DNA of 64,000 nt from contig CAYNML010000024.1 in NCBI GenBank assembly GCA_964398185.1, forward strand, positions 6,790-70,789. Reading direction: 5' to 3'. Made by a program: the position numbers and the translations under genes. The stretch's first letter is position 1. The number at the start of each line of letters is the position of its first letter. Origin of the DNA: an uncultured Anaerolineae bacterium. Lineage in GTDB: Bacteria; Chloroflexota; Anaerolineae; Fen-1058. This document shows, piece after piece, positions 13,971 to 58,374 of this stretch. The notes under the pieces were generated by a model, which was given only the letters and a program-made list of their open reading frames with translations, was not told the DNA's origin and ran no database searches.

Positions 13971-14501
13971 GTGGAATCTCGCCCGATAATCTCAGAACTC
14001 AAGATTGCCTATCTCGGCGGCGGCAGCCGCGAGTGGGCGCGCCAGCTGATGATCGATCTGGCGCTGTGCCCCGAGCTCGGCGGACACGTGGCGCTCTATG
14101 ACATCGATCGAGAAGCAGCCGCTCTCAACGAGCAGTTGGGCAACTGGCTGCAAGAGCAGCCAGGGGTAGTGTCGCGCTGGCGGTATGAAGTCGCGCCCGT
14201 GCTGGAAGAGGCTGTGCGCGGCCTGCGGTCAGCCACCCTCTATGCAGAATTTGCACGCGTCCTCGCGGCGATCTGTCCGCGAGCGTGGATCATCAACTAC
14301 ACTAATCCGCTGACAATTTGCCCGCGCACGCTGACGCGCGTGGCGCCGGCGCTCAAAGTCTTCGGCTGCTGCCATGAAGTGTACGCCACGCAGCGGATGC
14401 TGGCTGGCGTCGTCAAGCAATCTCTCGACGTCACCCCGACCCGCGCCCAGATCAAAGTAAACGTGCTGGGCCTCAATCATTTTACGTGGAATGTCAACTA
14501 A
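13971..14501 (+). pseudogene. GH4 alpha-galacturonidase (LplD-like) remnant with internal deletion and C-terminal truncation
   Basis: KIAYLGGGS, LYDID, INYTNP, GCCHEV and GLNHFTW motifs of GH4 are present. The ADFV...GDT.GPGG segment is missing, and the ORF stops at 176 aa. Confidence 0.85.
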
Positions 14502-14516
14502 TCTTTCGAGGACAGC

Positions 14517-15662
14517 ATGCAGACCGATCTCCCCACTCTACCCGCGACGCTGATCGATCAAGCGTGGTCGGTGCGCATGGCCGATTCGGCCATCGCACGC
14601 TATTCGCCCGATCAGGCCAAGTGGCACTACGAACACGGCCTGCTGCTGAAGTCGATCGAGGCGGTGTGGCGCGCGACCGGCGCGGTGAAGTACTGGCACT
14701 TCATTCACGACATACTCGATCTGTTTATCGACGCCGACGGCGACATCCGCACGTATCAACTTGAAGAATACAACCTCGATCAGATCAATCCCGGCAAAGT
14801 CTTGTTTCCACTCTGGCACTCGACCGGCGATCACCGTTACGTCATGGCGCTGCACCGGCTGCGCCGGCAATTGGCCAACCAGCCGCGCACGCAATCGGGC
14901 GGCTTCTGGCACAAGCAGATCTACCCGAATCAAATGTGGTTGGACGGCATCTTTATGGCCGCGCCGTTCTACGCCGAGTACGCCCTCACCTTCAACGAAC
15001 CGTCAGGCTTTGACGACGTGACACACCAGATTGTCCTGCTCGCCGAGCACGCGCGCGATCCGCAGACCGGTCTGCTGTATCATGCCTGGGATGAAAGCAA
15101 ACAGCAGCAGTGGGCCAATCCTCTCACCGGTTGTTCGCCGCATTTCTGGGGCCGCGCCCTGGGCTGGTATGCGATGGCGCTGGTCGATGTGCTGGACTAC
15201 CTGCCGCGCGACCACGCCGCCCGATCGACCCTCATTGCGATCTTGAACCAGCTGGTCGAAGCCGTCGCGCAGGTACAAGATCAGACGACGGGGCTGTGGT
15301 ATCAAGTGCTCGACCAGGGATCGCGCGCCGGCAACTATCTGGAAGCTTCCGCCTCGTGCATGTTCGTGTATGCGATTGCGAAAGCCGTGCGGAAGGTTTA
15401 CGTGCCGATCGAGCAGCTGGCGATCGCGCAGCGCGGTTATCAAGGGATCATTACTCAATTGGTGTCGATCGACGATCGGGGCGGCGTGAATCTTGCCGGC
15501 GTGTGCAGTGTGGCCGGCCTGGGCGGCGATCCGTATCGTGATGGATCGTATGAGTACTACGTCAAAGAGCCGGTCAGAACCAATGATCTCAAAGGCGTCG
15601 GCCCGTTCATGCTGGCTGCCGTCGAAATGGAAGACGCGCACCAGAACGGACGGATTAAATGA
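14517..15662 (+). CDS. GH105 unsaturated rhamnogalacturonyl/galacturonyl hydrolase (YteR-like)
   Basis: WHYEHG, GGFWHKQIYPNQMWLDG, GLLYHAWDE, FWGRALGW, LEASAS, NDLKGVGPF. Confidence 0.93.
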   Translation: MQTDLPTLPATLIDQAWSVRMADSAIARYSPDQAKWHYEHGLLLKSIEAVWRATGAVKYWHFIHDILDLFIDADGDIRTYQLEEYNLDQINPGKVLFPLWHSTGDHRYVMALHRLRRQLANQPRTQSGGFWHKQIYPNQMWLDGIFMAAPFYAEYALTFNEPSGFDDVTHQIVLLAEHARDPQTGLLYHAWDESKQQQWANPLTGCSPHFWGRALGWYAMALVDVLDYLPRDHAARSTLIAILNQLVEAVAQVQDQTTGLWYQVLDQGSRAGNYLEASASCMFVYAIAKAVRKVYVPIEQLAIAQRGYQGIITQLVSIDDRGGVNLAGVCSVAGLGGDPYRDGSYEYYVKEPVRTNDLKGVGPFMLAAVEMEDAHQNGRIK

Positions 15663-17170
15663 TCGATGTGCGCGCCTACGGCGCAGCCGGTAATGGCTGC
15701 ACACTCGACACACCCGCCCTGCAAGCGGCCATCGACGCGTGCCACACGCAGGGCGGCGGCACGGTCAACGTGCCGGCCGGCCGCTACGTCACCGGCGCGA
15801 TCTTTCTGCGCGACGACATCACGCTGCACCTGGAAGCAGGCGCGATCTTGTTGGGCAGCGAAGACCTCGCCGACTATCCCATCATCAACGGCCGGTGGGA
15901 AGGCGCAGAGCAGTCCACGTATGCCTCGTTGATCACGGGCGCGAATCTGCGCAATATTGCCGTCACCGGGCGCGGCGCCATCGACGGGCGCGGCGCGCAC
16001 TGGTGGCGGCGCTTTACGGACAAGACTCTGGCGCATCCGCGCCCGCGCCTCATCGCCTTTGCCAATTGCGACAATGTTCTCATTGAAGGCATCACCGCGA
16101 TCAATTCACCCAGTTGGACGATCAACCCGGTGCGCTGCGAGAACGTCACCATTCACGGCGTCTCAATCATCAACCCGGCGGACTCCCCCAACACCGATGG
16201 CATCAATCCCGATTCATGCCGCCTGGTGCACATCTCCGACTGCTACGTCAGCGTTGGCGACGATTGCGTCACGATCAAATCCGGCGTCGAAACGGAAGAC
16301 GCCGACCAGCGCGCGCCGTGCGAAAACGTCACCATCACCAACTGCACCATGGCGCACGGGCACGGCGGCGTGGTCATCGGCAGCGAGATGAGCGGCGGCG
16401 TGCGCAACGTCGTCATCTCCAACTGCGTGTTCATCGGCACCGATCGCGGCCTGCGTTTCAAATCGCGGCGCGGACGCGGCGGCGTGGTGGAAGATATTCG
16501 CATCAGCAACATCGTCATGACCGACGTGTTGTGCCCCATCACGCTGAATCTGTACTACGCCTGCGGCGCGTGGGGCGACACCGTCGTTTCCGACAAGCAG
16601 CCGCATCCGGTCACGGCCGACACGCCGCAGTTCCGCCGCATTCATTTCAGTCACATCACGGCGCGCGACGCGAAATATGCGGCCGCCTTCCTGTATGGTC
16701 TGGCCGAGATGCCGGTCGAAGACATCACGTTAAGCGATATTACAATCTCGTTGTCGCCTGACGCCGCGCCGGGTTATCCGGAAATGGCCGACGATATGGA
16801 CTTGATGCAGCGCGCCGGGTTCTTCGTGCGCAACGCGCGCGGGCTGCGCCTGCACCAGGTCGAAATCAGCGGGCAGACGGGCGCGGCCTTTCACGTGATC
16901 GATTCGTCGGAGGTGGAACTGAGCGGCTGCGCGACGCGCACGCCGGATCTCAAACACCCGATCGTTCAACTCGATAATGTCGATCATGCCTTTGTGCATG
17001 GCTGCCGCGCCAATTCCGGCGCGCCGGTTTTCCTGCAGGTGGACGGCGAGCGTTCGGCTGACATCGTGCTGCGCGGTAATCGCCTGTCGTGTCCACAGCC
17101 CGTCGCGCTGGGCGCCGCTGTTCAAGCGGACACGGTGCAGTCCGATGAAATTCTGTGGAGGACTTCATGA
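15659..17170 (+). CDS. GH28 polygalacturonase (no signal peptide; probably a cytoplasmic exo-acting enzyme)
   Basis: NTDG, GDD, GHGG and RFKS catalytic motifs (PNTDGINPD, VGDDCVTIKSG, HGHGGVVIGSEMSGG, GLRFKS). Confidence 0.93.
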   Translation: MIDVRAYGAAGNGCTLDTPALQAAIDACHTQGGGTVNVPAGRYVTGAIFLRDDITLHLEAGAILLGSEDLADYPIINGRWEGAEQSTYASLITGANLRNIAVTGRGAIDGRGAHWWRRFTDKTLAHPRPRLIAFANCDNVLIEGITAINSPSWTINPVRCENVTIHGVSIINPADSPNTDGINPDSCRLVHISDCYVSVGDDCVTIKSGVETEDADQRAPCENVTITNCTMAHGHGGVVIGSEMSGGVRNVVISNCVFIGTDRGLRFKSRRGRGGVVEDIRISNIVMTDVLCPITLNLYYACGAWGDTVVSDKQPHPVTADTPQFRRIHFSHITARDAKYAAAFLYGLAEMPVEDITLSDITISLSPDAAPGYPEMADDMDLMQRAGFFVRNARGLRLHQVEISGQTGAAFHVIDSSEVELSGCATRTPDLKHPIVQLDNVDHAFVHGCRANSGAPVFLQVDGERSADIVLRGNRLSCPQPVALGAAVQADTVQSDEILWRTS

Positions 17171-18198
17171 AAGTGGTGACGTTTGGCGAAATCATGCTGC
17201 GGCTCGCGCCGCCGGGCTTTCAGCGCTTCACGCAGGCCCGATCGTTCGACATGCTCTATGGCGGCGGCGAGGCGAACGTGGCCGTGTCGCTGGCGAACTA
17301 TGGCGCAACAGCCGAGTTCGTGACGCGTCTGCCCAAGCATGAACTCGGTGAAGCGTGTCTCGCTTCACTGCGATCGTATGGCGTGCGTACCGAGCACATC
17401 GTGCGTGGCGGCGATCGGTTGGGCATCTACTTCCTCGAAACGGGTGCCGCGCAGCGCGCCAGCAAAGTGATCTACGACCGGGCCGGATCGAGTTTTGCGA
17501 CGATGCAGCCGGGCATGGTGGAGTGGAACTCGGTCTTCGACGGTGCGGACTGGTTTCATTGGACGGGCATCACGCCCGCCGTGTCACAGGGCGCGGCCGA
17601 AGCCTGCCGTGAAGCGATTGCGATTGCGCGGCAGAAAGGGCTGACCGTCTCGTGCGATATGAACTATCGCGCCAAATTGTGGAAGTGGGGCAAGTCCGCC
17701 GGTGAGGTGATGAGTGATCTCGTGGCGCAGTGCGACGTTGCCATCGGCAACGAAGAAGACGCCGAAAAGGTCTTCGGCATCACAGCGCCGGAGTCGGATG
17801 TGACGGCGGGCAAAGTGGATGCGGAACACTACCGCTTCGTGTGCGAAGAACTGGTGAAGCGTTTCCCGGCGCTGCATACTGTGGCGATCACATTGCGCGG
17901 ATCACTCTCGGCCAGTCACAATACGTGGTCGGGTGTGTTATGGGACAAGGGGCAGTTCTTCACCGCGCCCACCTATGACATCGCGCCGATTGTCGATCGC
18001 GTCGGCGGCGGTGATTCATTCATGGGCGGGTTGATCTACGGTCTGCGCAAATTTGCGGACGATCCGGGCAAGGCGCTGCGCTTTGCGGTGGCCGCCTCGT
18101 GCTTGAAGCACAGCATTCTGGGCGACTTCAACGCGGTGAGCGTGGCCGAAGTAGAGCAGCTCATGGCCGGTGATGCGTCGGGGCGTGTGTCAAGATAA
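17167..18198 (+). CDS. kdgK: 2-dehydro-3-deoxygluconokinase (PfkB family)
   Basis: VVTFGEIMLRL, GGGEANVAVSLA, DMNYRAKLW, DRVGGGDSFMGGLIYG. ATGA overlap with the GH28 gene. Confidence 0.92.
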   Translation: MKVVTFGEIMLRLAPPGFQRFTQARSFDMLYGGGEANVAVSLANYGATAEFVTRLPKHELGEACLASLRSYGVRTEHIVRGGDRLGIYFLETGAAQRASKVIYDRAGSSFATMQPGMVEWNSVFDGADWFHWTGITPAVSQGAAEACREAIAIARQKGLTVSCDMNYRAKLWKWGKSAGEVMSDLVAQCDVAIGNEEDAEKVFGITAPESDVTAGKVDAEHYRFVCEELVKRFPALHTVAITLRGSLSASHNTWSGVLWDKGQFFTAPTYDIAPIVDRVGGGDSFMGGLIYGLRKFADDPGKALRFAVAASCLKHSILGDFNAVSVAEVEQLMAGDASGRVSR

Positions 18199-18203
18199 AT
18201 CGT

Positions 18204-18268
18204 GAAGGATGAAGGATGAGGGATGAAGGTCGGTTTTCTTCATCCTTCCGCCTTCCTCTTTCATCCTT
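18204..18268. repeat. Heptamer-based inverted repeat (GGATGAA)n / (TTCATCC)n, intergenic
   Basis: GAAGGATGAAGGATGAGGGATGAAGG ... CTTCATCCTTCCGCCTTCCTCTTTCATCCTT read directly. Confidence 0.75.
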
Positions 18269-18279
18269 AAAGGAGTGGT

Positions 18280-18954
18280 ATGGCACGCTTTATGCGCTTG
18301 GATGTGACGAATACTTTATTGGACATCGGCCTCGTCCCGCTGTTTTATCACGGCGAAGTCGAGACGGCGCTTGACGTCATTGCAGCCTGTGCGCGGGGTG
18401 GTGCTCGTGTGCTCGAGTTCACCAATCGGGGCGAGCTGGCCTACCCGGTCTTCAGCGAACTGGTGAAGCACTTTGCCACAGCCGATCCATCGATCGTGCT
18501 GGGCATCGGCTCGATCATGGATGCGCCCACCGCGGCGTTGTATCTGGCCGCCGGGGCGAACTTCATCGTGGGGCCGAGCTTCAATCCCGAAGTGGCGAAG
18601 CTGTGCAATCGCCGCAAGGTGCTCTACATCCCCGGCACGGCGACGGCTACTGAGATCGTGACCGCCGAGGAATACGGCGCGGAAATCTGCAAGGTTTTTC
18701 CGGGTGACACGTTAGGCCCCGGCTTCATCAAGGCCGTGTTGGCGCCGTGCCCCTGGCATCGCTTGCTGCCGACGGGCGGCGTCGATGCGACGGAAGCCAG
18801 CATCGGCGAATGGATCAAAGCGGGCGCGGCGGCTGTGGGACTGGGCAGCAAGCTGATCACGGCGGAAGCCATCAAGGCGCGCGACTTCGACGGCATCGCC
18901 ACGAAAGTAGCGCAGTGTATCGGCTGGATTCAAAAGGCGCGCGGCACGCGGTAA
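18280..18954 (+). CDS. eda: KDPG / KHG aldolase
   Basis: LEFTNRG, GANFIVGP, PGTATATEI, KVFPG, LLPTGGV, AVGLGSKL; follows kdgK. Confidence 0.92.
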   Translation: MARFMRLDVTNTLLDIGLVPLFYHGEVETALDVIAACARGGARVLEFTNRGELAYPVFSELVKHFATADPSIVLGIGSIMDAPTAALYLAAGANFIVGPSFNPEVAKLCNRRKVLYIPGTATATEIVTAEEYGAEICKVFPGDTLGPGFIKAVLAPCPWHRLLPTGGVDATEASIGEWIKAGAAAVGLGSKLITAEAIKARDFDGIATKVAQCIGWIQKARGTR

Positions 18955-18995
18955 TTCCATATCAACTGTCGTGGCTGGCGAAGAAATAGAAGTCA

Positions 18996-19055
18996 ATCCA
19001 CGAAGGCCACGAAGGAACACTAAGGCTTTGGACATTCTTCGTGCTCTTCGTGGAT
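18996..19055. repeat. REP-like inverted repeat built on CACGAAG / CTTCGTG units
   Basis: ATCCACGAAGGCCACGAAG ... CTTCGTGCTCTTCGTGGAT. Confidence 0.7.
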
Positions 19056-19098
19056 CAAAATGTTGTTGTGCAGACCACTGTCTGAAGGAGATTGAGAG

Positions 19099-19917
19099 AT
19101 GAAATACCATTCGCTGTTGACGGCCAATGCCGGATTGAATCCCCTGCCCTTTAACGCCTGCAAGTTGCTGGACTTCTGCCTGCTCAAGTTGGCGGCCAGC
19201 GCAACCTACGCAGCCGCAACGCCCGATCGAGAAATCCTGGCAGTGATCCTGGGCGGCAAAGCCACGTTTGAGATCGACGGCCAGCGCTTCGAGAAAGTGG
19301 GCGGACGGCCCAATGTATTTTCCGGCAAGCCGCACGCAGTCTACATCCCGGCAGGCGCCAAGTTCAGCGTCCATGCAGAGAGCGCAGTGGAGATCGCTTT
19401 GCCCAGTGCGCCCAGCGATGCGGCCATCGAGCCATACGTGATCACACCGGCGCAAGTGGCGCACGGCGTGTGGGGCGCGGCCAACTTTAAGCGCAGCTAT
19501 CATCAAATTTTGACGCTGGCTTCGCAGCCTGAACTGCCCGCGCGCCGCTTGATCGTTGGCGAGACATTCACGCCCAGCGGCAATTGGAGCACCTATCCGC
19601 CGCACAAACATCAAGTGGACGATCTGCCGCGCGAGGCGTATCACGAAGAGATGTATTACTTCAAGGTCAATCCCGCGGACGGCTTCGGCCTCTGCCACTA
19701 TTACAACGAAGAAGGCGAAGAAGAAAACTTCACCGTGCGCGATAACAGCCTGCACATGCTGCCGCGCGGTTATCACACGGTCGTCAGCGCGCCGGGCTAC
19801 ACCACGTATTACCTATGGTTCCTGGCGGGCCATCAACGGGTGCAGGCCACGGTGGACGATGCCGCGTTGGGCTGGGTCAGCCGCACCGTCGCGATGTTGA
19901 AAGAGTTGGGACACTAA
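19099..19917 (+). CDS. IolB-type (KduI/IolB family) uronate isomerase; probably acts as 5-keto-4-deoxyuronate isomerase here
   Basis: GETFTPSGNWSTYPPHKH, EEMYYFK and PRGYHTVVSAPGY..YYLW motifs of IolB; sits between eda and kduD. Confidence 0.8.
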   Translation: MKYHSLLTANAGLNPLPFNACKLLDFCLLKLAASATYAAATPDREILAVILGGKATFEIDGQRFEKVGGRPNVFSGKPHAVYIPAGAKFSVHAESAVEIALPSAPSDAAIEPYVITPAQVAHGVWGAANFKRSYHQILTLASQPELPARRLIVGETFTPSGNWSTYPPHKHQVDDLPREAYHEEMYYFKVNPADGFGLCHYYNEEGEEENFTVRDNSLHMLPRGYHTVVSAPGYTTYYLWFLAGHQRVQATVDDAALGWVSRTVAMLKELGH

Positions 19918-20002
19918 GTTCAGGCATGGGGATGCTTGAACTACATTGACCATGTTGTGACGCATAGGGATGCGTCACCTGCATTGCTGAGGAGGTATCG
20001 AG

Positions 20003-20767
20003 ATGATTCTCGATCAATTTCGCCTGGATGGACGGGTGGCGTTGGTGACGGGTGCGGGTCAGGGCCTGGGGCAGGCCATGGCGATCGGGTTGGCCGAGGC
20101 CGGCGCAGACATCGTGGCGCTGGATCGCCGCGAGAGTGATCAAACCGGGCAGGCGGTCACAGCGCTCGGCCGCCGCTTCACAGCGATCACGTGCGATCTG
20201 TTGACGGCCTCGGTCACCGATTTGCAGCAGGTGGTGGCGCAGATCATGAGCGACCTGGGCCACATCGACGTGCTGGTGAACAATGCCGGCATCATCCGCC
20301 GCGCCCCCGCCCTTGACTTCAGCGAGGCTGATTGGGACGAAGTCTTGCAGATCAACCTGAAGGTGGTGTTCTTTCTGTCGCAGGCCGTCGCCCGTACACT
20401 GATCGGCAACGGCGGCGGCAAGATCATCAACGTCGCCTCCATGCTGTCGTATCAGGGCGGCATCATCGTGCCGTCGTACACCGCGTCCAAGAGCGCCGTG
20501 GCCGGCGTGACCCGCGCGCTGGCCAACGAGTGGGCGCGGCACGGCATCAACGTCAATGCGATCGCGCCCGGCTATATGGCGACGGACAACACGGCGGCGC
20601 TGCGCGCCGATCCCGATCGGTCTTCGACCATTCTCGATCGGATTCCGGCAGGCCGCTGGGGCACGCCGGAAGATCTCAAGGGAGCCGTCGTGTTTCTGGC
20701 CTCGCCCGCCGCGAATTATCTGCACGGCGCCATCCTGCCCGTCGACGGCGGCTGGTTGGCTCGGTAA
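20003..20767 (+). CDS. kduD: 2-dehydro-3-deoxy-D-gluconate 5-dehydrogenase
   Basis: SDR motifs TGAGQGLG, NNAGIIRR, ASMLSYQGGIIVPSYTASKSAVAG, NAIAPGYMATDNT, RIPAGRWG. Confidence 0.93.
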   Translation: MILDQFRLDGRVALVTGAGQGLGQAMAIGLAEAGADIVALDRRESDQTGQAVTALGRRFTAITCDLLTASVTDLQQVVAQIMSDLGHIDVLVNNAGIIRRAPALDFSEADWDEVLQINLKVVFFLSQAVARTLIGNGGGKIINVASMLSYQGGIIVPSYTASKSAVAGVTRALANEWARHGINVNAIAPGYMATDNTAALRADPDRSSTILDRIPAGRWGTPEDLKGAVVFLASPAANYLHGAILPVDGGWLAR

Positions 20768-20860: not shown

Positions 20861-23800
20861 ATGAACCGCTCGGCTTTGCGCATCGGCTCGGTGTTGGTGT
20901 TGGCTGTCTCCATGTTGGCCGTGTTGCTCGTGTTCCTGCCGGCGTTGGCCGTGCAGCTCCCGTTGGTCAGTGACGACTTTGAGAGCGGCGCGGGACTGTG
21001 GACCGTGCAGGCCGGCAACTGGTCGATCACAACTACCCCAGAGGGCGCGGCGTACAGCGTCATCTACAGCGGATCGCCCAGCACAGCGCGCGCCATTATC
21101 ACGGAGACGACGGTGCCGGGATCGACGGCGTGGACGGATTATCGGATTGAATCGCGCATCAAAGTCATCACCGGCACCGGCGGCTATTACGCCATGCTCA
21201 TGGCGCGCTACAAGGACGCCCGGAACTACTATTTCATGACCCTGCGCGGCGATAATGGCCGCGTGGAGATCAGGCGTTACTACAACAACTCCTCCAGCGG
21301 ACGCACCCTCACGTCGACCAATGCCAACATCGCAGTGGGAACCTGGTACACCGCGGCCTTTGAGTTGCAGGGCAACACGCTGCGCGCCTACATCGATGGA
21401 AATCTGGTGGCGACGGCCATCGATACCAACACCGTTGAATCTTTCTATACCGGCACGGCGGGACTCGCCACCGCAACCGGCTCGGCGCTGTTCGACGATG
21501 TGCTGATCACCGATCTGCGCGCCTACACCCTCACCGTGAGCAGCGCCGGCAGCGGCGCCGGATCGATCAGCAGCGATCCGGCGGGCATTAGCTGCGGCGC
21601 TACCTGCGCGGCAAGCTTCGATGCCAACAACGTGATCACGCTCACGGCGACACCCGACGCCGGATCGAGCTTTGCCGGTTGGCTGGGCGCATGTGTGGGC
21701 ACAGGTCCGTGTGTCGTCACGCTGGATGCAGCGAAGGCAGTGGTCGGCGTCTTCTCGCTGGACACGCAGCCGATGCTGGTGGTCAACAAGGGCAGCAACG
21801 GGTATGGCCTGGTCACGAGCGACCCGGCGGGCATCGAGTGCGGCATGACGTGCACGGCCAGCTTTGCGCACAGCACGGTAGTTACGCTGACCGCTGCGCC
21901 CGAAAGCGGATCGCTCTTCACCGGGTGGAGCGGTGAAGGCTGCACCGGCACTAGTCAATGCGTTGTTACCATGGATGCCGCGAAGAATGTGACGGCGAGT
22001 TTCACACTGCAAATCTTTGCGTTGAATGTCAGCCAGGCGGGCAACGGCACAGGCACCGTGACCAGCAATCCGGCCGGCATCAACTGCGGCGCGACATGTT
22101 CGGCCAACTACAACGCCGGTACAGTGGTGACGCTCACGGCGTCACCCGACACAGGTTCGACGTTCACGGGGTGGTCGGGGAGTTGCAGTGGATCGGGCAC
22201 GTGCGCTGTCACGATCAATGCGACGACGGGCGTCACCGCGACCTTCGATCTGATCACCTACACCTTGACAGCCCATCGGGCGGGCAACGGCCTAGGATCA
22301 ATCAACAGTACCCCGAGCGGCATCGATAACTGCACAGATGCTACATGCGCGGCGATCTTCAACTACGGCACAGTCGTCACGTTGGCGGCGACGGCGAATA
22401 CCGGCTCGCTCTTCGCCGGCTGGAGCGGCGAAGGGTGCAGCGGCACAGACCCGTGCGCGGTGACCATGACCGCGGCCAGGACGGTGACGGCGACGATGAG
22501 CCTGCTGACCTACACGTTGAGCGTCACCACCGCCGGCCATGGCACAGGCTCGGTCACCAGCGTTCCTGCCGGTATCGACTGCGGCGCGACATGCTCGGCT
22601 ATCATCGATCACGGCACGGTCGTCACGTTGACAGCTGCGGCTGATGGCGGCTCGGCGTTTGCGGGCTGGCAGGGCGCAAATTGCCTGGGGACAGGCGCTT
22701 GTGTCGTAACGCTGGATGCGGCTAAGTCTGTGACCGCGCTCTTCTCGTCGAATAGCAATCCGCTGCTAGTGGTTTATAAAGGCGGCACTGGATTGGGCAC
22801 TATCACCAGCGAACCGGTTGGCATCGATTGCGGCATGACGTGCACGGCCAGCTTCGCGCAGAATACCGTCGTGACGTTGACGGCCACGCCGGATGCCAGT
22901 TCACTCTTCGCGGGCTGGTGTGGCGCGTGCTTAGGCGCCGGGCCGTGCGTCCTCACCATGGACGAGACCCGGAACACGCGCGCGGTCTTTATCGACACGT
23001 CGGCCATTCTGGCCCTGGACGATTTCGAAAGCGGTGCAGGGCAGTGGACGGTTGAATCGGGTGCGTGGACGATCAGCATGGCTGATTCGCAAGTCTACAG
23101 CACCAGCCAGACGGTGGGCGTTAGTTTTGCGCGTTCGGTGATTTCGAATGCGCACACCTCCGGCTGGACCGACTATGTTTTCCGCGCCAGAGTGAAACCG
23201 CTCGTGGGCCAGTATGCCATGTTAATGGTGCGCTATCAGAATGCCAACAACCACTACTTCATGGACTTGCGCACCGACAACGGCAAGATCGAAATCAAGA
23301 AAATGGTGAACGGTTCATCGGGCAGCGCGCTCAAGAGCGTCAGTGCCGGCATCACCGCCGGGACGTGGTACACCGCCGAACTCGAAGTGGTGGGCGCGCA
23401 GCTGCGCGGTTATCTCAACGGCGTGCTGGTGATCACAGCCACCGATCCGCTGGTGAATCCGCCCTTTATGACGGGCGGCGTCGGCGTGGGCACGCTCAAC
23501 AACAGCGCCGAGTTTGACGATGTGCAAGTCGCCTCACTGGCTCCGATCTACACGCTGACCGTCCAGCGCGCCGGCAGCGGTTCCGGCGCAGTGAGCAGCA
23601 CACCGTTCGGGTTGGATTGCGATCTCAACTGCGTCGCGGGCTTCAACGGCGGCGCGGTGGTGGCGCTCGTCGCTGCGCCTGATCCCGGATCGACATTTGC
23701 CGGCTGGCTGGGCGGCGGGTGCAGCGGCACAGGATCGTGCACCATCACGCTGAATGCCAACAAGTCGGTCACCGCCGTGTTTTCGTCGGTCAGTGAGCCG

Positions 23801-25519
23801 ATGCTGGTGGTCAACAAGGATGGCAATGGCGCCGGCGTCGTGACGAGTGTGCCCGCCGGTATCGATTGCGGTGCGATGTGTGCTGCCGGTTTTACGCAAA
23901 ACACGATCGTCACCCTCACCGCAACGGCCACCAACTACTCCACGTTCATGGGCTGGAGCGGTGAAGGTTGCAGCGGCACAGGATCGTGCACAGTGACCAT
24001 GGATGCGGCTAAGTCTGTCACCGCCACCTTTACGTACTTCACCTACCCGCTCACGGTGTCCACTGCCGGCAGTGGACAGGGCACGGTGACCAGCAATCCG
24101 GCAGGGATCCACTGCGGTGTAACGTGCACGGTGAGCTTCGGCGGCGTGGTCACGCTTACCGCTGCGCCTGATCCGGCGACACACTTCGACGGTTGGAGCG
24201 GCGCCTGCAGCGGCGCGGGCCGGTGTGTCATCACAATGGAGGCCGCCAGGAGCGTGACGGCGACCTTCACGCAGTACAACACGTATCTGCCGCTCATTCG
24301 CAACTACATCGCGCCGGTCACGGTCGCGCCGGTGTACGTCGCGCCGAATGGCCTGGATACCAATCCTGGCACCATCACGCAGCCGTTCAAGACATTGAAC
24401 AAAGCGATCGCGCAGACGACGCCCGGCCAAACGATCTTCCTGCGCGGCGGCGTTTACTCGCACACCGACACGATCACGTTGAGTCAGAGCGCCAACAATG
24501 TAAACATGTACAAGATCTGGGCTTATGCCGCTGAAAAGCCGGCGCTGGATTTCGCGGGCGCACCGTTTGGGGCGCGTGGCTTCAACATCACGGGCAACTT
24601 CTGGCATCTGAAAGGTCTGGAGATCCGGTACGCGCCGGACAACGCCATCAAGATCGAGGGCAGCTACAACATCGTCGAAAACTGTGTGCTGCACCACAAT
24701 CAGGACACGGGCCTGCAAATCGGCCTGGCGACAGAATCGGTCAATCCCGGCGGAACGCTGGCCGCTTACAATCAGGTGATCAACTGCGACTCGTATCGCA
24801 ACTATGACGCGGCCACCAACGGTTCCAATGCCGATGGCTTTGCGGCCAAACTGCACCCCGGCCCCGGCAATCTCTTCAAGAGCAGCCGGGCCTGGGAGAA
24901 CGCCGACGACGGTTGGGACTTGTTTCTGACAGACTACCCGGTGATGATCGAAAATTCGTGGACGTGGCACAACGGCGATCCGGCGATCTTCAATCACGTC
25001 GGCCCGTGGGGCGGCAACGGCAACGGCTTCAAGGTGGGCGGCGGCAACAATCACGCGCCGCACATCTTGAAGAACTGTCTCGCCTTCGATCACAAATACG
25101 GTCCCGGTTCAGGCACCAAGGGCTTCGATCAGAATCACAATCTGAGCGGCATTACGATCTACAATTCGGTGGCGTGGGACAATGCGATCAATTATTCGTT
25201 CTACGAGCAGCCCACCGACGGCACGCATCATGTGTTGAAGAACAACGTCGGCTTCGCGTGGACCAGCAGCAACGTCAATCTGTCGGCGGATACCATTCAG
25301 GCGGCCAACAGCTGGACTCTCACGGTCACGACCAACATCAGCGATTTTCTTAGTCTGGATGCGCTGCTGGCCAGCGCACCGCGCCAGCCCGATGGCGCTC
25401 TGCCGCTCAACGACTTTGCGCGGTTGACGAATGACAGCGATCTGATCGACGTGGGGGTGGATGTGGGCCTCCCCTTCCTGGGACTGGCGCCGGACTTGGG
25501 CGCGTTTGAAAAGCGATAA
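20861..25519 (+). CDS. Secreted modular PL9 pectate lyase: signal peptide, 2 ConA-like (DUF1080/CBM66-like) domains, 9 Cys-containing InlB-B-like repeats, C-terminal PL9 beta-helix
   Basis: PL9 (PelL-type) motifs NADGFAAK, GNLF...AWENADDGWDLF, GNGNGFKVGG and terminal APDLGAFE; repeated GTVTSxPAGIxCGxTC...FxGWxGxC modules. Confidence 0.88.
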   Translation: MNRSALRIGSVLVLAVSMLAVLLVFLPALAVQLPLVSDDFESGAGLWTVQAGNWSITTTPEGAAYSVIYSGSPSTARAIITETTVPGSTAWTDYRIESRIKVITGTGGYYAMLMARYKDARNYYFMTLRGDNGRVEIRRYYNNSSSGRTLTSTNANIAVGTWYTAAFELQGNTLRAYIDGNLVATAIDTNTVESFYTGTAGLATATGSALFDDVLITDLRAYTLTVSSAGSGAGSISSDPAGISCGATCAASFDANNVITLTATPDAGSSFAGWLGACVGTGPCVVTLDAAKAVVGVFSLDTQPMLVVNKGSNGYGLVTSDPAGIECGMTCTASFAHSTVVTLTAAPESGSLFTGWSGEGCTGTSQCVVTMDAAKNVTASFTLQIFALNVSQAGNGTGTVTSNPAGINCGATCSANYNAGTVVTLTASPDTGSTFTGWSGSCSGSGTCAVTINATTGVTATFDLITYTLTAHRAGNGLGSINSTPSGIDNCTDATCAAIFNYGTVVTLAATANTGSLFAGWSGEGCSGTDPCAVTMTAARTVTATMSLLTYTLSVTTAGHGTGSVTSVPAGIDCGATCSAIIDHGTVVTLTAAADGGSAFAGWQGANCLGTGACVVTLDAAKSVTALFSSNSNPLLVVYKGGTGLGTITSEPVGIDCGMTCTASFAQNTVVTLTATPDASSLFAGWCGACLGAGPCVLTMDETRNTRAVFIDTSAILALDDFESGAGQWTVESGAWTISMADSQVYSTSQTVGVSFARSVISNAHTSGWTDYVFRARVKPLVGQYAMLMVRYQNANNHYFMDLRTDNGKIEIKKMVNGSSGSALKSVSAGITAGTWYTAELEVVGAQLRGYLNGVLVITATDPLVNPPFMTGGVGVGTLNNSAEFDDVQVASLAPIYTLTVQRAGSGSGAVSSTPFGLDCDLNCVAGFNGGAVVALVAAPDPGSTFAGWLGGGCSGTGSCTITLNANKSVTAVFSSVSEPMLVVNKDGNGAGVVTSVPAGIDCGAMCAAGFTQNTIVTLTATATNYSTFMGWSGEGCSGTGSCTVTMDAAKSVTATFTYFTYPLTVSTAGSGQGTVTSNPAGIHCGVTCTVSFGGVVTLTAAPDPATHFDGWSGACSGAGRCVITMEAARSVTATFTQYNTYLPLIRNYIAPVTVAPVYVAPNGLDTNPGTITQPFKTLNKAIAQTTPGQTIFLRGGVYSHTDTITLSQSANNVNMYKIWAYAAEKPALDFAGAPFGARGFNITGNFWHLKGLEIRYAPDNAIKIEGSYNIVENCVLHHNQDTGLQIGLATESVNPGGTLAAYNQVINCDSYRNYDAATNGSNADGFAAKLHPGPGNLFKSSRAWENADDGWDLFLTDYPVMIENSWTWHNGDPAIFNHVGPWGGNGNGFKVGGGNNHAPHILKNCLAFDHKYGPGSGTKGFDQNHNLSGITIYNSVAWDNAINYSFYEQPTDGTHHVLKNNVGFAWTSSNVNLSADTIQAANSWTLTVTTNISDFLSLDALLASAPRQPDGALPLNDFARLTNDSDLIDVGVDVGLPFLGLAPDLGAFEKR

Positions 25520-25582
25520 GGGTAATTCCCCCGATCGGATCCGGTGAAAGCCGCCAGTCCGATCGGCTGCCGGTGAGCGCTT

Positions 25583-26815
25583 ATGGCTAAGATCAAATTC
25601 ACCATCTACGGCGATCAGCCTTCGCCCCTGGAAAATCTGGATTTCCTGCTGCAGGAGTTTCAGAAACAGGAGCGTGTCCAGGTTTCCGTGGAGCGGCTGG
25701 CATGGGAAGCCGCCTGGCCCAAGCTGCTGAATTATGCGCTGTATGGCGGCGGCCCGCATGTGTCGCAAATCGGCTCCATTTGGACGAGCACGTTGGTGTC
25801 GATGAACGCCCTGCGGCCGTTCACACCACAAGAGATCTCGCTGGCGGGCGGCAAGGAAGCATTCCTGGAACCGGCCTGGCAGACGGCGGTGCTGCCCAGC
25901 CAGTCTGTAGCGTGGGGCATCCCGTTTACGGGATTCACCTATGTCGTGCTTTACCGGCGCGATCTGCTGCAACAGGCGGGGGTCGCCGAGGAGACCGCGT
26001 TCGTTTCGAGCGAAGCCGTGTTGGAGACGCTGCGGCGCTTGCAGGCGGCCGGTGTTGCTGCGCCCGTGGTGCTGCCCGCTGGTCAGCCGTTTCGCGCGCG
26101 GGTGCACATTGCGGCCAGTTGGCTCTGGGGAACAGGCGGCCACTTTGTCACCGACGATGAACGGCAGGCGCAGTTTGATCAGCCCGCGGCGCGCGCCGGG
26201 TTGAGATCCTTTTTCCAGCTGTACTCCTATCTGGCGCCGCACGATCACAATCTGACCTATAATGAATGCCTGCAGCGTTTTGTGACAGGCCAGGCAGCGG
26301 TCGTCATCGCCAGCACAACGATACTCCCCATGCTGCGACAGGCCGGTGTGCCGCAAGTGCTGGAGAGTCTCGGCTCAGCCATTTTGCCCGGCGTGCCGTG
26401 GATCGGCGGATCGAACCTGGTGGTGTGGCGCGAGGCACAAATGTATCCCGATCTCGATCGGGCGGCGTTGGCGCTGGTCAAGTTCTTGACGAGTCACGCC
26501 GCGCAGTGAAAATATGCGGTGGCGGCCAACGCCATCCCGGCGCGGCAGTCGGCGCTGGCCGAGTTGTGCTTTGAACCGGCGGCCTTGAATGAGACCTTCA
26601 AACATTCCCTGCAGATGGGCCGTAGTTACCGCCCGGTGTTGATCTGGGTGCGCATGATCAACGATTTGAGCGATACCTTCGACGCCATAACGGCCGAGGT
26701 GTTGGCGCAGCAGGACATCGACGAAGTGTTGAGCAAACACCTGACACCGCTGGCGCAGCGGTATAATCGGATGTTGTCTCTCGACCAACTGGCGCAGCTT
26801 GATCGACGCGGCTGA
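25583..26815 (+). pseudogene. Signal-peptide-less solute-binding protein (family 1-like) interrupted by an in-frame TGA at 26507-26509
   Basis: ORFs 25583-26509 and 26519-26815 are in the same frame, joined by CAG TGA AAA TAT GCG GTG. The read-through gives FLTSHAAQ*KYAVAANAIPAR, a standard SBP C-terminal pattern. Confidence 0.75.
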
Positions 26816-26849: not shown

Positions 26850-28319
26850 TTGAATCTGACAACCCTCTCACGCCTGAAGTTCTCACCGCGTTCGCTGGTC
26901 AGCCACGAGGTAGCCGAGTTCGGCCTGGCCGAGACAGAGAACGGCCCGCGTCTGGCAATTTTGACGGCCACTGCCGACGCTCCGCTCTTGCAGCCATTCG
27001 AGGGGAAACGCTCTGAGCACGACGGGCATACGCTGATTCTAGGCCTGCTCAGTCCGCGCAATGCCGCGGCGCTGCGCGAGCAACTTCCCTGGCTCAAGCC
27101 GCGCCCGCTGGGCCTGAAAACATCGGCCGGGCTGGGCGATCGCATGGGGTTGGCGACACCCGGTCATGTGCGCGCCATTCGCGCCGCGGGTAACATCGCG
27201 CCCATTTTCGCGCAGCAGTCCATCCGCGAGATGACGCGCACCGGCCGCACCCCGCAGCAAGTCATGGACGACGCCACGTGGGGCATCTTTCAAGAAGGCT
27301 GGCAGCGCGGCATGGGCGCCGATGCCGATCACTTGAAAACCACCGCCGATATCGATCGCTGTGCCGCGGCGGGTTTCACCTTCTTCACGATCGATCCCGG
27401 CGAGCATGTCGATAACTCAGCGGAGACGGCGTCACTGTCGGATCTGCGGGCGCTGGCGGAACAGCTGCCGCCCGATCGGCACGCGGCGGCCACCGGGCTG
27501 TTAAATCAAACCTTCGATCTGGAAGGCCACGCCGTCCACTTTGACGAGCACACCCTGCTCAAAGCCATGGTGAAGTATGGCCGCGCAGTGGGACACGTCG
27601 CGCGCCTGTATCAGCATTTGATCTCCGTGATCGATCCAGCGCAGTGCGAGTTGGAGGTGTCGGTAGATGAAACCGAACAGCCCACGTCACATGCCGAACA
27701 CATTTACATCGCCAGCGAACTCAAACGGCTGGGCGTAAAGTGGGTCAGCCTGGCCCCACGTTACATCGGGCGCTTTGAAAAGGGCGTCGACTATATTGGG
27801 GATGTGGCCGCCTTTGAGCAAGATGTTGCCGTGCATGCGGCCATCGCGCGCCGGTTCGGCCCCTACAAATTAAGCCTGCATTCCGGCTCCGACAAGTTCA
27901 GCATCTACCCGGCGGCCATGCGGCAGACGCGCGGGCTGGTACACCTGAAGACGGCGGGCACCAGTTATCTGGAAGCGCTGCGCACCATTGCGGCACTCGA
28001 CATACCGTTCTTCCGCAAGATTTACGCCTTTGCGCGCGAGCGCTACGAAACGGACAAAGCCAGCTATCACGTTTCGGCGGAACTATCACGCACGCGTGCC
28101 CCGGAAGATCTCTCGGACGCTGAACTGCCGCACCTGCTGGAACAGTTCGATGCGCGCGAAGTGCTGCACGTCACGTTTGGATCGGTATTGACCGAGCGCA
28201 ACGCCGACGGCTCGCGCCGCTTCTACGATCGGTTGGTGGACCTCTTGCGCGCGAATCCTGAGGACTATGCGGCCAATCTGGAGAGACACTTCATCCGACA
28301 CTTGCAGCCGTTTGCCTAA
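26850..28319 (+). CDS. uxaE: Tagaturonate/fructuronate epimerase
   Basis: GLGDRMGLATPGH, AQQSIREM.RT, GADADHLK, FEKGVDY.GD, KLSLHSGSDKFSIY, HLKTAGTSYLEALR. Confidence 0.9.
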   Translation: MNLTTLSRLKFSPRSLVSHEVAEFGLAETENGPRLAILTATADAPLLQPFEGKRSEHDGHTLILGLLSPRNAAALREQLPWLKPRPLGLKTSAGLGDRMGLATPGHVRAIRAAGNIAPIFAQQSIREMTRTGRTPQQVMDDATWGIFQEGWQRGMGADADHLKTTADIDRCAAAGFTFFTIDPGEHVDNSAETASLSDLRALAEQLPPDRHAAATGLLNQTFDLEGHAVHFDEHTLLKAMVKYGRAVGHVARLYQHLISVIDPAQCELEVSVDETEQPTSHAEHIYIASELKRLGVKWVSLAPRYIGRFEKGVDYIGDVAAFEQDVAVHAAIARRFGPYKLSLHSGSDKFSIYPAAMRQTRGLVHLKTAGTSYLEALRTIAALDIPFFRKIYAFARERYETDKASYHVSAELSRTRAPEDLSDAELPHLLEQFDAREVLHVTFGSVLTERNADGSRRFYDRLVDLLRANPEDYAANLERHFIRHLQPFA

Positions 28320-28433: not shown

Positions 28434-28573
28434 CCCGCTTGCAGTAAGCGGGGTGTGCATGCAAAAAGTGTCAGGAGGCTCACCGTCCGCGTCCCCGTCC
28501 GCTACGCTCACCAACCGCGTGGACGCGGTTGGTGAGCGCGAATCTAGCTGACACGCGCAGCGGTTGCATGCAC
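28434..28573. other. Nested inverted-repeat structure of unknown function
   Basis: Perfect 16-bp stem 28505-28538, enclosed by GTGTCAG/CTGACAC and GTGCATGCAA/TTGCATGCAC pairs; an extra hairpin at 28434-28452. Confidence 0.6.
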
Positions 28574-28635
28574 ATGCGAGGTCGGCCCAACAAACCAAAA
28601 GTGATCACACTGATCACAAATTAATCACCAATAAA

Positions 28636-28676
28636 AGGCGACGATGGGATTTGAACCCATACTGAGGGTTTTGCAG
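28636..28676 (-). other. 3' half of tRNA-Cys(GCA); probable att site (not an intact tRNA)
   Basis: Minus strand reads CTGCAAA ACCCT CAGT ATGGG TTCAAAT CCCAT CGTCGCC T: anticodon loop, perfect T-arm, acceptor 3' strand and U73. The upstream sequence cannot form the D-arm or acceptor 5' strand. Confidence 0.8.
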
Positions 28677-28895
28677 TTTCTCACCGCGCCAATCTCAGCC
28701 ACTGAACAACTGATCGATCTCAGATTACCTCGCCGCGAAGTGTTCCTGAAGAACAAGCCTGAATTCAGGCGGGCAGGCTTCTTCGCAAACCCGGCGATCG
28801 GTTCACCGAGATTCGCTTCAGTCTTCAACCAAACCACGACACGCTTCCAACCAAAAGCATACGACCAAAGCACTACTGAAAATCGGGCGTGGCTT

Positions 28896-28904
28896 TGTTA
28901 TAAT
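28896..28904 (+). promoter_or_regulatory. Extended -10 sigma70-type promoter for the giant RHS gene
   Basis: Consensus TGTTATAAT about 150 nt upstream of the GGAGG RBS and the GTG start at 29056. Confidence 0.6.
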
Positions 28905-29055
28905 CGTGGCGATCTTCATGGATTAACCCCGGATTAAAACGGAGCACGCACATCCAGCTGCATAGCTTAACCCACCCGGTTGGCGCAACACAAACGAACT
29001 GCAAGTTGGCCGGAGTATCTCTGGCCGTTCCCGATTTTGAACGGAGGATATCGCT

Positions 29056-44000: not shown

Positions 44001-47000
44001 GGATGCCGCCGGGCACACCACACACTACGGCTACGATCTGCTCAATCGCAAGATTGCGATCACAGACACCCAGGGCCACGTGACGCGCTACGCTTACGAT
44101 CAACTGGGCAACTTGATCACGACGACGAATGCGCTCTCGCAGACCACCGTCACGTGGTACGACGCCCTCAAGCGCCCGCTGACGGTGACGCTGAACTACG
44201 TCGATGGCGTGTACGATCCCGCCCGACCCGCTGAAGACGTCACGACCGTGCAGCGGTATGATCTCGCCGGCGACCTGGTCGAACAGATCGATGCGCTGGG
44301 CCGCGTCACACGCCTCACTTACGACGCGCTCGGTCAAGTGCTGACCGCCACCGATCCGTTGTCCCACACCGTCAGCAAGACCTACGATGCCATCGGGAAT
44401 CTACTGACTTCAACGGACGCCAACGGCCACGTCACACAATACGCTTACGACGCGCTCGATCGCGTGAGCACGCTGACTGATGCCTTGAGTGGCACCGTCC
44501 GTTACGGTTACGATGCCGCCGGGCACGTCATCAGCACCACCGATGAACTGGGCCGCACGACCCTCACGCAATACGATGCGGTCTATCGGCCTGTGACGAC
44601 GACGTACAACTTTGTCGATGGGGTCTTCGATCCGGCGCGGCCCGACGAAGACGTGATCACCGTCAAACGCTATGACGCCGCCGGCAACGTCGTCGCGGCG
44701 ATCGATCCGCTGGGTTACGTGACGCACTACGCCTACGACGCCCGCGATCTGGTCATCACCACGACCAACGCCCTCTCCGGCACGTCACGCTTCACCTACG
44801 ATCGGGTGGGCAACCGCCTGACCGACAGCGATGCCGCCGGGCATGTCATCACCTACGGCTACGACTCGCTGTATCACGTCGTCGCCATCACCGATCACCT
44901 GGGTTACGCCACCACCTTCGGCTTCGATGCGCTCGGCAATCGCACGATTGTCACCGATGCGCTGGGCCGCGTCAAGCGGATCGAATTCGATCGCCTGAAC
45001 CGCCCGGTGACGACGACGTTCAACTATCACGACGGGGTCTTCGATCCCGCCCAGCCCGATCGGGACGTGGCGACGATTACGCGCTACGACGGCGCGGGCA
45101 ACGTCGTCGCCGAGATCGATCCGTTGGGGTATGAGACGCACTACGCCTACGACGCGCTGAACCGCCTCATCACCACCACCAACCCGTTGTCGGGCACCAT
45201 CGTGCGCGGCTACGATGCGGTGGGCAATCAGATCGTCGTGACCAATGCCAACGGCTTCGCCGCGCACTTCACCTACGATGCGTTGCGGCGCAATACGCAG
45301 ATCGTCAATGCGCTGGGCGAGGTCACCACCTTTGCCTATGATGCCGCGGGCAATCAGATCACCATCACCGATGCGCTCAGCCGCACCACGCACTACGCCT
45401 ACGATGGACTGGATCGCCCCATCACCGTCACCAATCCATTGACGGGCACCACCGTCTATGTCTGGGATGCGGCCAGCAACCAGCTCGCCGTGATCGACGC
45501 GGCAGGGCGGATCACGCGATCGGGTTATGATGCGCTCCAGCGGCTGATCGCCCTGACCGACACGCTGGGGAACGTGACGCGCTTCGGCTACGATGCGGTC
45601 GGCAATCAAACCGTCATCACCGACGCCAACGGTCACGTCACGTCCTTCGGCTACGACGAATTGAACCGGCAGGTGGTCATCACCGATCCGTTAAACGGCA
45701 CGACCACCTTCGGCTACGATGCCGTGGGCAATTCCGTGCTGACCATCGACCCCGAAGGCCGCGCCACAGCTTTTGGTTACGACGAACTGGATCGCAACGT
45801 CGTCATCACCGATGCGTTGGGCAGCGTGGCGTATCACGTCTACGACGCGCGCGGCAGCGAACTGCAGCAGATCGATCCGGAAGGCCACATCACGCGCACG
45901 GACTATGACGCGCTGGGCCGCGTGGTCACCGTGACCGACGCGTTGAGCGGCACGACGGCGTTCACCTACGATCCGCTCGGCAACGTGATCCGCCAGATCG
46001 ATGCCGCAGGGCGCGTGAGCACCATTACGTATGACGCGCTCAATCGTCCGCTGACCGTGACCGATCCGTTGACGGGAACGACCCTTTATCGCTACGACGC
46101 CGTCGGCAACCTCATCACCACCAGCGACGCGGAAGGCCGATCACGCTGGATGGAGTACGACGCGCTCAACCGGCCGATCAAGCTCACCGATCCGTTGAGC
46201 GGCACCACGACCTTCGGCTACGACGCCGTGGGCAACCTGCTGCGCACGACCGATGCCGAAGGCCACACCACGCACACCGCTTACGACGGACTGAATCGGC
46301 CGATCGTGATCACCGATGCGCTGCAGCACAGCACGCGCACCACGTACGATCCGGTTGGCAACCGCCTCAGTCTCGTCGATGCGCGCGGTCACACCACCAC
46401 CTTCGCGTACGATGCGCTCGATCGGCTGGTGCAGACGACCGATCCGGTGAGCGGCACCACCGCCTTCGGTTACGATCGCGTGGGCAACCAGACCGTCATC
46501 ACCGACGCCACCGGCCGCGCCGTCCACCTGACCTACGACGCCGTCTATCGCTTGAGCGCGCAACGCGATGCGCTGGGTCACACCACGCGCTACGCCTACG
46601 ACCGCATCGGCAACACCGTCTTGATCACCGACGCCGCCGGCATCGTGGTGCGCCACGAATACGACGCGCTGAGCCGCCTCGCCGCCGTGATCGAAAACTA
46701 CCGCCCCGCACTGCCGGCGAGCGCCGACACCAACGTGCGCACGGCCTACGGCTACGATCGCGTCGGCAACCGTACTGTCGTCACCGATGCCAACGGCCAT
46801 GCCACACGCTACACCTACGACGCCCTCGATCGTCAGACCGACATCGTCGATCCGCTCAATCACGCCTATCACTTCACTTACGATCAGGTCGATAACCTGA
46901 TCGCGCGGCGCGATCCCAACGGCCAGACGATCACCGTCACCTACGACGCCCTCAACCGCCCGATCGTGCTGCGCTATCCCGATCAGCTGGTGGCGCTGGC

Positions 47001-57590: not shown

Positions 57591-57658
57591 GCGTGGCCGC
57601 GTCTATCCTTGTAGAATCGGTGTATAATTTTCATAGACCGATAGTAAGGCGGACAATC

Positions 57659-57991
57659 ATGAGCGACTTAACGACTCGCACTACGGCAAAACGACTCAAT
57701 ACCCTGGCGCAGCTCTACGAGCGTGGTCAGACCAGTCCATTGTTGGATCGGGCGCTGGCTAAAGCGCTGACGTATGAGGCTGCCGTGTCACGCCAGCAGC
57801 TGGAGCAATTGCAGGCCGATCTGGCCGAACTGGAACAACGCTATGGACTATCGTCGGCCGAGTTTTACCAGCAATATCAAGCCGGCCAGACAGATGATCA
57901 ACTTGATTATACGGAATGGGCCGCGCTGCTCCAGATGGCGAATAACTTGCAAGAACGGCTGCGGTTGCTGGCCGACGCCGAACGTCCATGA
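57659..57991 (+). CDS. Probable antitoxin of a type II TA pair
   Basis: LEQRYGLSSAEFYQQYQAGQTDDQLDYTEWA pattern; ATGA overlap with the downstream toxin; TATAAT at 57623. Confidence 0.7.
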   Translation: MSDLTTRTTAKRLNTLAQLYERGQTSPLLDRALAKALTYEAAVSRQQLEQLQADLAELEQRYGLSSAEFYQQYQAGQTDDQLDYTEWAALLQMANNLQERLRLLADAERP

Positions 57992-58371: not shown

Positions 58372-58374
58372 CCG

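Follow-up and report, generated by a model that had tools for sequence, protein, structure and literature searches.

A 41-nt piece of a tRNA-Cys gene stands alone in a 64,000-nt stretch of an uncultured Chloroflexota genome (the window, meaning the whole stretch of DNA analysed here), between uxaE and a very large predicted toxin gene. Does it mark the end of a mobile island? A regenerated tDNA and a displaced tDNA fragment mark the ends of such islands, and crossover in the anticodon loop defines their largest class (PMC4383910). An earlier note on this DNA placed the left end of an island of more than 35 kb at the fragment, with the toxin gene, addAB, a toxin-antitoxin (TA) pair and restriction-modification (R-M) genes as cargo and with the intact tRNA-Cys and the integrase beyond position 64000. 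The features of the locus are as follows.

26850–28319, plus strand: uxaE (tagaturonate epimerase), last gene of a conserved pectin/galacturonate cluster
28451–28545, no strand: short dispersed repeats in the interval that separates uxaE from the fragment, among them the hairpin ACCAACCGCGTGGACGCGGTTGGT; they break Logan contigs
28636–28676, minus strand: orphan 3′ half of a tRNA-Cys(GCA), from the anticodon loop to discriminator U73, with the 5′ half absent
28677–28698, minus strand: the 22 nt directly 5′ of the fragment (sense CTGAGATTGGCGCGGTGAGAAA), with an AGAAA junction common to the relic in the relative L208
29056–51657, plus strand: predicted gene for a 7,533-aa secreted RHS/YD-repeat polymorphic toxin with LamG, MAM, Ig-like and DUF6531 regions
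51679–52599, plus strand: 306-aa ORF (DUF8367, precomputed Pfam), candidate immunity gene, GC3 0.56
52650–52690, no strand: GC-rich perfect palindrome where the 306-aa ORF and the recQ′ remnant converge, at the right edge of the variable segment
52700–52881, minus strand: truncated recQ-like gene (recQ′), about 60 N-terminal codons, DEAD profile positions 2–38 of 167
52895–61536, minus strand: conserved block 223aa-197aa-addA-(TA)-addB, 84–89% identical in nucleotides to the relative L207 and colinear with it
57593–58371, plus strand: TumE-type TA pair (PDC-M44A/B) between addA and addB, GC3 0.58–0.59
61776–63963, minus strand: type II restriction enzyme and Dam-like methyltransferase, absent from L207 and L208, GC 0.50, GC3 0.53–0.56

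Read on the minus strand, the fragment parses into the anticodon loop CTGCAAA (anticodon GCA), the 3′ strand of the anticodon stem (ACCCT), a 4-nt variable loop (CAGT), a perfect T arm (ATGGG-TTCAAAT-CCCAT), the 3′ strand of the acceptor stem (CGTCGCC) and U73 (T). A reference set of tRNA-Cys genes was assembled by a degenerate pattern search, which retrieved 80 metagenome loci and one IMG/VR locus with the consensus GGCGACGTGGCCAAGTGGCAAGGCAAGGGT followed by CTGCAAAACCCTCATCATGGGTTCAAATCCCATCGTCGCCT. The fragment is identical to the consensus of intact genes at 39 of 41 positions (consensus positions 31–71, E=5.5e-14), both mismatches falling within the variable loop; tRNA identity begins at C32 and the span corresponds to tRNA-Cys positions 32–73. 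The 41-mer occurs once in the window, and shuffled sequences gave 0 expected matches at three or fewer mismatches. Elsewhere in the window the consensus meets only chance 8–12-mers, and the sequence 5′ of the fragment (GGCGCGGTGAGAAA) does not match the 5′ strand of the anticodon stem. The earlier description of a minus-strand 3′ fragment that starts in the anticodon loop, keeps its T arm, acceptor strand and U73 and has no 5′ half is thus borne out. A complete cloverleaf, with both acceptor strands, a D arm and an anticodon stem, is absent, and the fragment is not a functional tRNA-Cys gene. ARAGORN found no tRNA gene in the 64-kb window, the Rfam tRNA model gave a sub-threshold 16.9 bits over 28636–28690 (gathering score 29), and no Rfam family reached its gathering score in the window. 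The exact 41-mer or 38-mer had no match in IMG/VR or in 241 M metagenome contigs, so that the fragment is identical to no tRNA-Cys or attP catalogued there. Readings of the fragment as part of a group I intron or of a split tRNA were dropped because the window holds no 5′ exon.

The locus is present in two freshwater metagenomes, X1 and X2, whose Logan contigs were examined. A 7,555-nt contig runs from 28474 into the toxin gene and crosses the fragment without a break in both assemblies, and an independent JGI contig (L213), 100% identical to the window over 44156–56466, confirms the segment to the right and its right junction; the fragment is therefore not an assembly artefact. Depth on the two sides of the fragment is 54 versus 51 in X1 and 20 versus 19 in X2, with no joints, and hence there is no sign of excision or heterogeneity at the level of contigs. 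The loose-end sequences of the Logan contigs found no match among the sequences compared. Logan contig breaks at 28470–28545 stem from the short dispersed repeats, which are not strain variation. These repeats (28451–28545), among them a perfect 24-nt hairpin, recur on other metagenome contigs of equal depth. Directly 3′ of the fragment, at 28601–28629, lie three GTGAT(C/T)A motifs (GTGATTAAT, GTGATCAGT and GTGATCACT).

The orientation of the fragment places any element on its 5′ side, toward higher window coordinates, a geometry on which the earlier note was right. An intact tRNA-Cys is missing both from the window and from the next 4.7 kb, which a JGI contig of the same organism (L001) covers; the window, L001 and the contigs L207–L215 contain no tRNA at all. 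A tblastn search of the window and L001 with three tRNA-Cys-linked integrases returned nothing, and no ORF to the right of the fragment had a Pfam integrase match. A scan of 60 uxaE loci from relatives revealed no tRNA-Cys near uxaE. Set against the features by which Islander recognizes an island, the replicon does contain a tDNA fragment, here as usually the 3′ part (28636–28676, minus strand); no intact cognate tDNA of like orientation closes the far end within the window or the 4.7 kb beyond, a tyrosine integrase inside the candidate island is missing from the window and L001, and the content of 52894–64000, far from being absent in relatives, is conserved and colinear in L207 and L208. Mobility left no trace in either assembly, in contig-level data to which rare excision is invisible. 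The tRNA-Cys and the integrase that had been predicted to the right of the window were thus not encountered in the 4.7 kb past 64000.

On its left side the window carries a pectin/galacturonate cluster (ABC transporter, GH88, GH28, KdgK, Eda, KduI, KduD and UxaE). The best relatives of UxaE are found in Thermoflexales/Anaerolineae MAGs (80% identity in L006 and 85% in L007), and the cluster is colinear with L006 over 14214–20763 and at uxaE, with an extra 5.6 kb at 20861–26509. That insert, compared with L006, encodes a 1,552-aa surface protein (InlB B-repeats, LamG and a Pel9A-like β-helix) and a solute-binding protein. Synteny with L006 and L007 ends at uxaE, and there is no likeness further right in DNA or protein; the genes downstream of uxaE in these relatives have no counterpart right of the fragment, and the empty site for which the earlier note had proposed to compare relatives was not found in L006 or L007.

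A decayed copy of the fragment is present in L208, one of seven relatives that carry the addAB block (L207–L211, L214 and L215). Positions 14470–14511 of L208, on the addA strand, read AGAAA followed by CGGCAAAACCCTCACCACGGCTTCAATTCCCATCGTCGCCT and are identical to the window copy at 40 of 46 positions. The relic matches the tRNA consensus at E=4e-8, with a broken T arm and a mutated anticodon, and lies 84 nt past what is left of the 223-aa gene, a 29-nt piece of its 3′ end; no toxin gene intervenes. Both copies share the non-tRNA junction AGAAA (not AGGGT), the strand and the side of the block, which argues that they are homologous and old. About 370 nt downstream of the relic, a 91-aa ORF has a weak PHROG integrase match (phrog_1, E=8e-4) and no Pfam or PDB match, and a homologue search returned the ORF itself alone; judged by that profile match, it is possibly an integrase remnant. 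A search of IMG/VR with the junction pattern AGAAACKGCAAAACCCTCA gave one chance match, in AT-rich coding DNA.

The fragment is probably, though far from certainly, an old orphan att scar at a plasticity site, left there without its integrase or its partner tRNA. A tyrosine integrase would have recombined the attP of an element with a tRNA-Cys from the anticodon loop on, producing a displaced 3′ half, and the regenerated tRNA-Cys and the integrase would later have been lost or separated through deletions, duplications and rearrangements. The same-junction copy directly after the addA block in L208, with no toxin gene, makes it probable that the scar is old, and the toxin cassette may have arrived afterwards or be the final cargo of an element that has since decayed. 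We infer that an integrase was involved, that the scar is old and that events followed this order. Two points run counter to a single old event. The relic is missing from L207, L209–L211, L214 and L215 and so is kept in one of the seven relatives, L207 being the closest of them by AddA; independent insertions by one element family may explain this as well. Furthermore, the window copy is near pristine, with its perfect T arm, whereas the L208 copy is decayed and the flanking intergenic DNA cannot be aligned; were it a neutral relic dating back to the divergence from L208, much poorer preservation would be expected.

Analogous loci on other contigs make the integrase origin claimed by the earlier note plausible. 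Several of the 81 retrieved loci carry the 3′ half of tRNA-Cys only. In L130/L142, a gene for a 320-aa Phage_integrase protein (E=4e-29) lies immediately 5′ of the fragment on the same strand, and a tyrosine-integrase gene (E=9e-29) has the same position and strand in L097; L152 holds an intact tRNA-Cys and its cognate fragment 8.5 kb apart. Williams, in 2002, reportedly described the displaced tDNA fragment (attR) of tyrosine-integrase islands and prophages, including a class with crossover in the anticodon loop. Like those, the window fragment runs from the anticodon loop to the discriminator with its orientation placing the element 5′, the same 41-nt span forms an exact direct repeat round a 13-kb contig in the same metagenomes, and similar fragments adjoin integrase genes elsewhere. 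Unlike those, the window locus has no cognate tRNA-Cys, integrase or second att within reach; the fragment departs by 3 nt from the 41-nt repeat of the population and has a decayed homologue in a relative. On this reading it is a scar and not the end of a current island.

The 41-nt repeat was recognized in the source community. In the Logan contigs of X1 and X2, no second copy shares at least 31 nt with the fragment. A 41-nt unitig covers the span of 28636–28676 at 85% likeness with 3 mismatches, and its depth is about twice that of the organism (115.5 versus 51 in X1 and 35.5 versus 19 in X2). Both ends of a 13,018-nt contig (depth 48.9) lie in the unitig: the contig opens with the unitig's last ~27 nt and TTT and closes with the unitig's first ~28 nt. 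For a graph built at k=31, the doubled depth and these contig ends indicate a ~13-kb segment flanked by 41-nt direct repeats of exactly the tRNA-Cys part that makes up the fragment; a circle together with an empty site is the alternative for this contig. An organism of equal abundance, most simply that of the window, would thus carry a tRNA-Cys-integrated element whose repeat boundaries are those of the fragment, the link between contig and organism being equal depth in the two samples. These data suggest an integrase system specific for tRNA-Cys at another locus in the population, and the community's apparent tRNA-Cys-targeting element with its 41-nt core is a lead for integrase discovery. 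In the same metagenomes, a 945-nt contig (depth 27 in X1 and 15 in X2) matches 28651–28698 with 5 mismatches and then diverges; the different relative depth indicates that the 22 nt 5′ of the fragment (28677–28698) recur, about 86% alike, in another population, and the likeness stops beyond these 22 nt.

The segment between the fragment and the addAB block (28677–~52700) is dominated by the giant toxin gene, preceded by non-coding DNA (28677–29055). The predicted protein has a signal peptide, 40 RHS-repeat stretches (PF05593, E=3e-260) and DUF6531; its C-terminal ~600 residues match nothing in Pfam. When the first 1000 residues served as a query for homologues, the best hit had 46% identity over half of the query, and no close homologue appeared. 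Rhs/YD-repeat polymorphic toxin cassettes combine a swappable C-terminal tip with a downstream immunity gene. All three elements, an RHS array, a C-terminal tip and a small downstream gene, are found here, toxicity and immunity being predictions only. The likeness extends to the low-GC3 tip, the small low-GC3 ORF that follows and the placement of the gene in a variable region between conserved blocks; a lower GC3 is usual for Rhs tips. In contrast to the usual cassettes, the gene is very large (7,533 aa) and encodes long N-terminal LamG/MAM/Ig arrays, and its link to the scar is positional only.

Could this 24-kb segment itself be a degenerate tRNA-Cys island, with the fragment as its attR, the integrase and the attL tRNA deleted and another tRNA-Cys having taken over? 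We regard this as unlikely. In keeping with the geometry, the segment is 5′ of the fragment; L207 and L208 have the flanking block but not the segment, although no clean empty site was found. The tip of the toxin gene (GC3 0.63) and the 306-aa ORF are low in GC3, a truncated gene and a palindrome stand at the right edge, and the population appears to hold a second tRNA-Cys locus with the 41-nt repeat. Against this, the segment contains no integrase or integrase remnant and no second att, its two ends share no repeat of 11 nt or more, and the body of the toxin gene is host-like in GC3 (0.73–0.83) and in tetranucleotide usage (r=0.92–0.96 against the left block). The truncated gene is better explained by local gene order: recQ′ after the 223-aa gene is best read as the leftover of a ...19x-RecQ-DprA arrangement, through tandem duplication and then deletions, and not as imported DNA. 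In L208 the relic lies beside the block with no cassette, and the junction likeness stops 22 nt from the fragment, which together suggest that the cassette replaced older element DNA. At most, then, 28677–~52700 could belong to an element, one that ends on the right where a deletion has cut a local gene short. Of the earlier claim that the toxin gene is cargo, its place on the element side and its absence from L207 and L208 stand; the second att and the integrase are missing.

A tRNA-Cys pseudogene that owes nothing to an integrase, with positions ~10–31 lost by internal deletion or decay, is a distinctly improbable origin. Like tRNA pseudogenes and truncated tDNAs, the fragment is a partial tRNA sequence with no tRNA function. 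Five nucleotides upstream of it, GGCGCGGTG resembles tRNA positions 1–9 at 7 of 9, and the Rfam tRNA model pairs 5 of 7 of these as the 5′ acceptor strand; the 14 nt upstream of the L208 relic (GGCAGGGCAAGAAA) match tRNA positions 18–31 at 10 of 14. We estimate, however, the chance of a 7/9 match within 40 nt of GC-rich sequence at roughly 5–10%, and no relative has an intact tRNA-Cys beside uxaE or the addA block. Moreover, unlike in pseudogenes, the cut falls where integrases are known to cross over and at the boundary of the community repeat: identity starts at C32, the left end of the 41-nt metagenome repeat and of several integrase-linked fragments. As a long shot, the scar might be a long-lived, usable secondary attB, a site with the 3′ half only, at which tRNA-Cys-specific integrases of this population repeatedly load and unload DNA beside addAB, the 22.6-kb RHS cassette having been delivered in this way; if so, repeated use would keep the window copy pristine.

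The island of more than 35 kb, reaching from 28677 past 64000 to a tRNA-Cys and an integrase with the toxin gene, addAB, TA and R-M genes all as cargo, is very improbable. The strand and orientation of the fragment would fit it, the L208 relic is likewise 3′ of the addA block on the same strand, block order is circularly permuted among relatives, and the sequence right of the window is covered for 4.7 kb, up to a 123-nt tandem array. The block itself speaks against it. Its full order is 223aa-197aa-AddA-AddB-SNF2-DprA from 52894 through 64000 and the 4.7 kb beyond, where L001 encodes a 119-aa protein, SNF2 and a DprA-like protein, the latter two 92% identical in nucleotides to L207. The alignment with L207 covers 52894–61528 and ends precisely on the stop codon of the 223-aa gene. 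In L207 and L208 (AddA 83% and 79% identical), the order is RecQ, DprA-like, SNF2, small variable genes and AddB, followed by a small gene pair, AddA and genes for 26x/121, 197/194 and 209 aa, after which unrelated genes begin. The core SNF2-AddB-AddA-19x is kept in all seven relatives with unrelated flanks, and two further contigs, for which no DNA was available, also keep it with other flanks; no tRNA-Cys lies in the flanks of the seven, over up to 10 kb per side. The relatives of AddA (54156–57590) are graded smoothly (83, 81, 81, 79 and 78% identity and below), and its 72–83% identity across the seven is in line with the 80–85% of the housekeeping-like UxaE.

The block has a host-like composition (GC3 0.71–0.83), and its two low-GC3 modules differ among relatives independently. 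The TumE pair stands where relatives carry a 131+126-aa pair, and the R-M pair, a methyltransferase and a DUF6996/6997 protein (type II MTase and REase in PADLOC), is absent from L207 and L208; absence or replacement in relatives together with low GC3 marks them as separate small indels and not as joint cargo. The permutation of the block, SNF2-AddB-AddA-27x-19x-RecQ-DprA (seen in L211 and the P0009 contig) versus RecQ-DprA-SNF2-AddB-AddA-..., is explained by the recQ′ remnant through tandem duplication and deletion. The block is thus conserved and colinear, with several independent small indels, and addAB and its neighbours are not the cargo of one island: 84–92% identical in nucleotides and of the same gene order in relatives with different flanks, they are, as far as such comparisons tell, ordinary conserved chromosome, vertically inherited right of 52894. 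The claim of a large island with addAB, R-M and TA genes as its joint cargo therefore falls. As hot spots, the intergenic slots SNF2|AddB and AddB|AddA take up small accessory modules; the slots of L207 (4625–6051) hold RelB/ParE, a C39 peptidase and the 131+126-aa pair, and the first slot of L208 is empty.

That the fragment was kept by function, as a secondary attB that serves tRNA-Cys-specific integrases as landing pad or decoy, or as a tRNA-like RNA element, is just as improbable as the large island: the perfect T arm and 39/41 identity persist despite a decayed L208 copy and unalignable intergenic flanks, and a third copy, an R′-type sequence with the same 22-nt arm, occurs in another population, but the decay in L208 shows that constraint is not general, the 63 nt formed by fragment and arm have an unremarkable predicted fold (z=-2.2) that is not tRNA-like, and the contigs show neither joints nor a change of depth at the site.

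An old orphan att scar next to an inherited block would mean that the fragment marks a long-lived plasticity or breakpoint site and not a current island edge. The locus would then be a plasticity site in an uncultured Thermoflexales-like genome (Chloroflexota), with a conserved block that carries small defence and TA indels and with a lineage-specific giant RHS toxin cassette adjoining the scar. An island cannot be delimited by a tRNA fragment alone: by that rule, addAB, the main double-strand-break repair genes, and the conserved helicase/DprA block would here have been mislabelled as cargo. The feature is real and of an ordinary kind, and leaves current understanding unchanged.

Several minor observations were made along the way. 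In L132, L152, L088 and L125, four unrelated contigs, a conserved sequence of ~150 nt (containing GAAGACGGTCAAGGGTCTGGGTC, GCGAGCAAGGGTC and GGTCGGGT) is fused to the tRNA-Cys 3′ half on its 5′ side; no Rfam family matched it at gathering score, and it could represent a structured RNA that has escaped recognition, or else the conserved arm of an attP. The viral contig L086 (IMG/VR UViG 3300022177_000076) has at 6867–6938 a near-complete tRNA-Cys copy whose first four acceptor bases are unpaired (CGTAACG instead of GGCGACG), and which looks like an attP holding almost the whole tRNA. Upstream of the DprA-like gene, ~4.3–4.7 kb past the window (L001:1–398), stand at least three tandem copies of a 123-nt unit with a hairpin and a T-run; L207 and L208 have RecQ there, and the JGI contig ends within the array. 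A nested palindromic element of ~90 nt (CGTCATTGCGAGGAGCG...AAGCAATCTC...GAGATTGCTTCG...GCGCTCGCAATGACGG) has three copies in the window, at 2908–2976, at 56274–56365 inside addA and at 60662–60766 inside addB, two of them thus in coding sequence. It has the look of a small mobile element, palindromic and inserting in frame, reminiscent of the Rickettsia palindromic elements. The addB copy is missing from L207 (25 nt versus 103) and present in L208.
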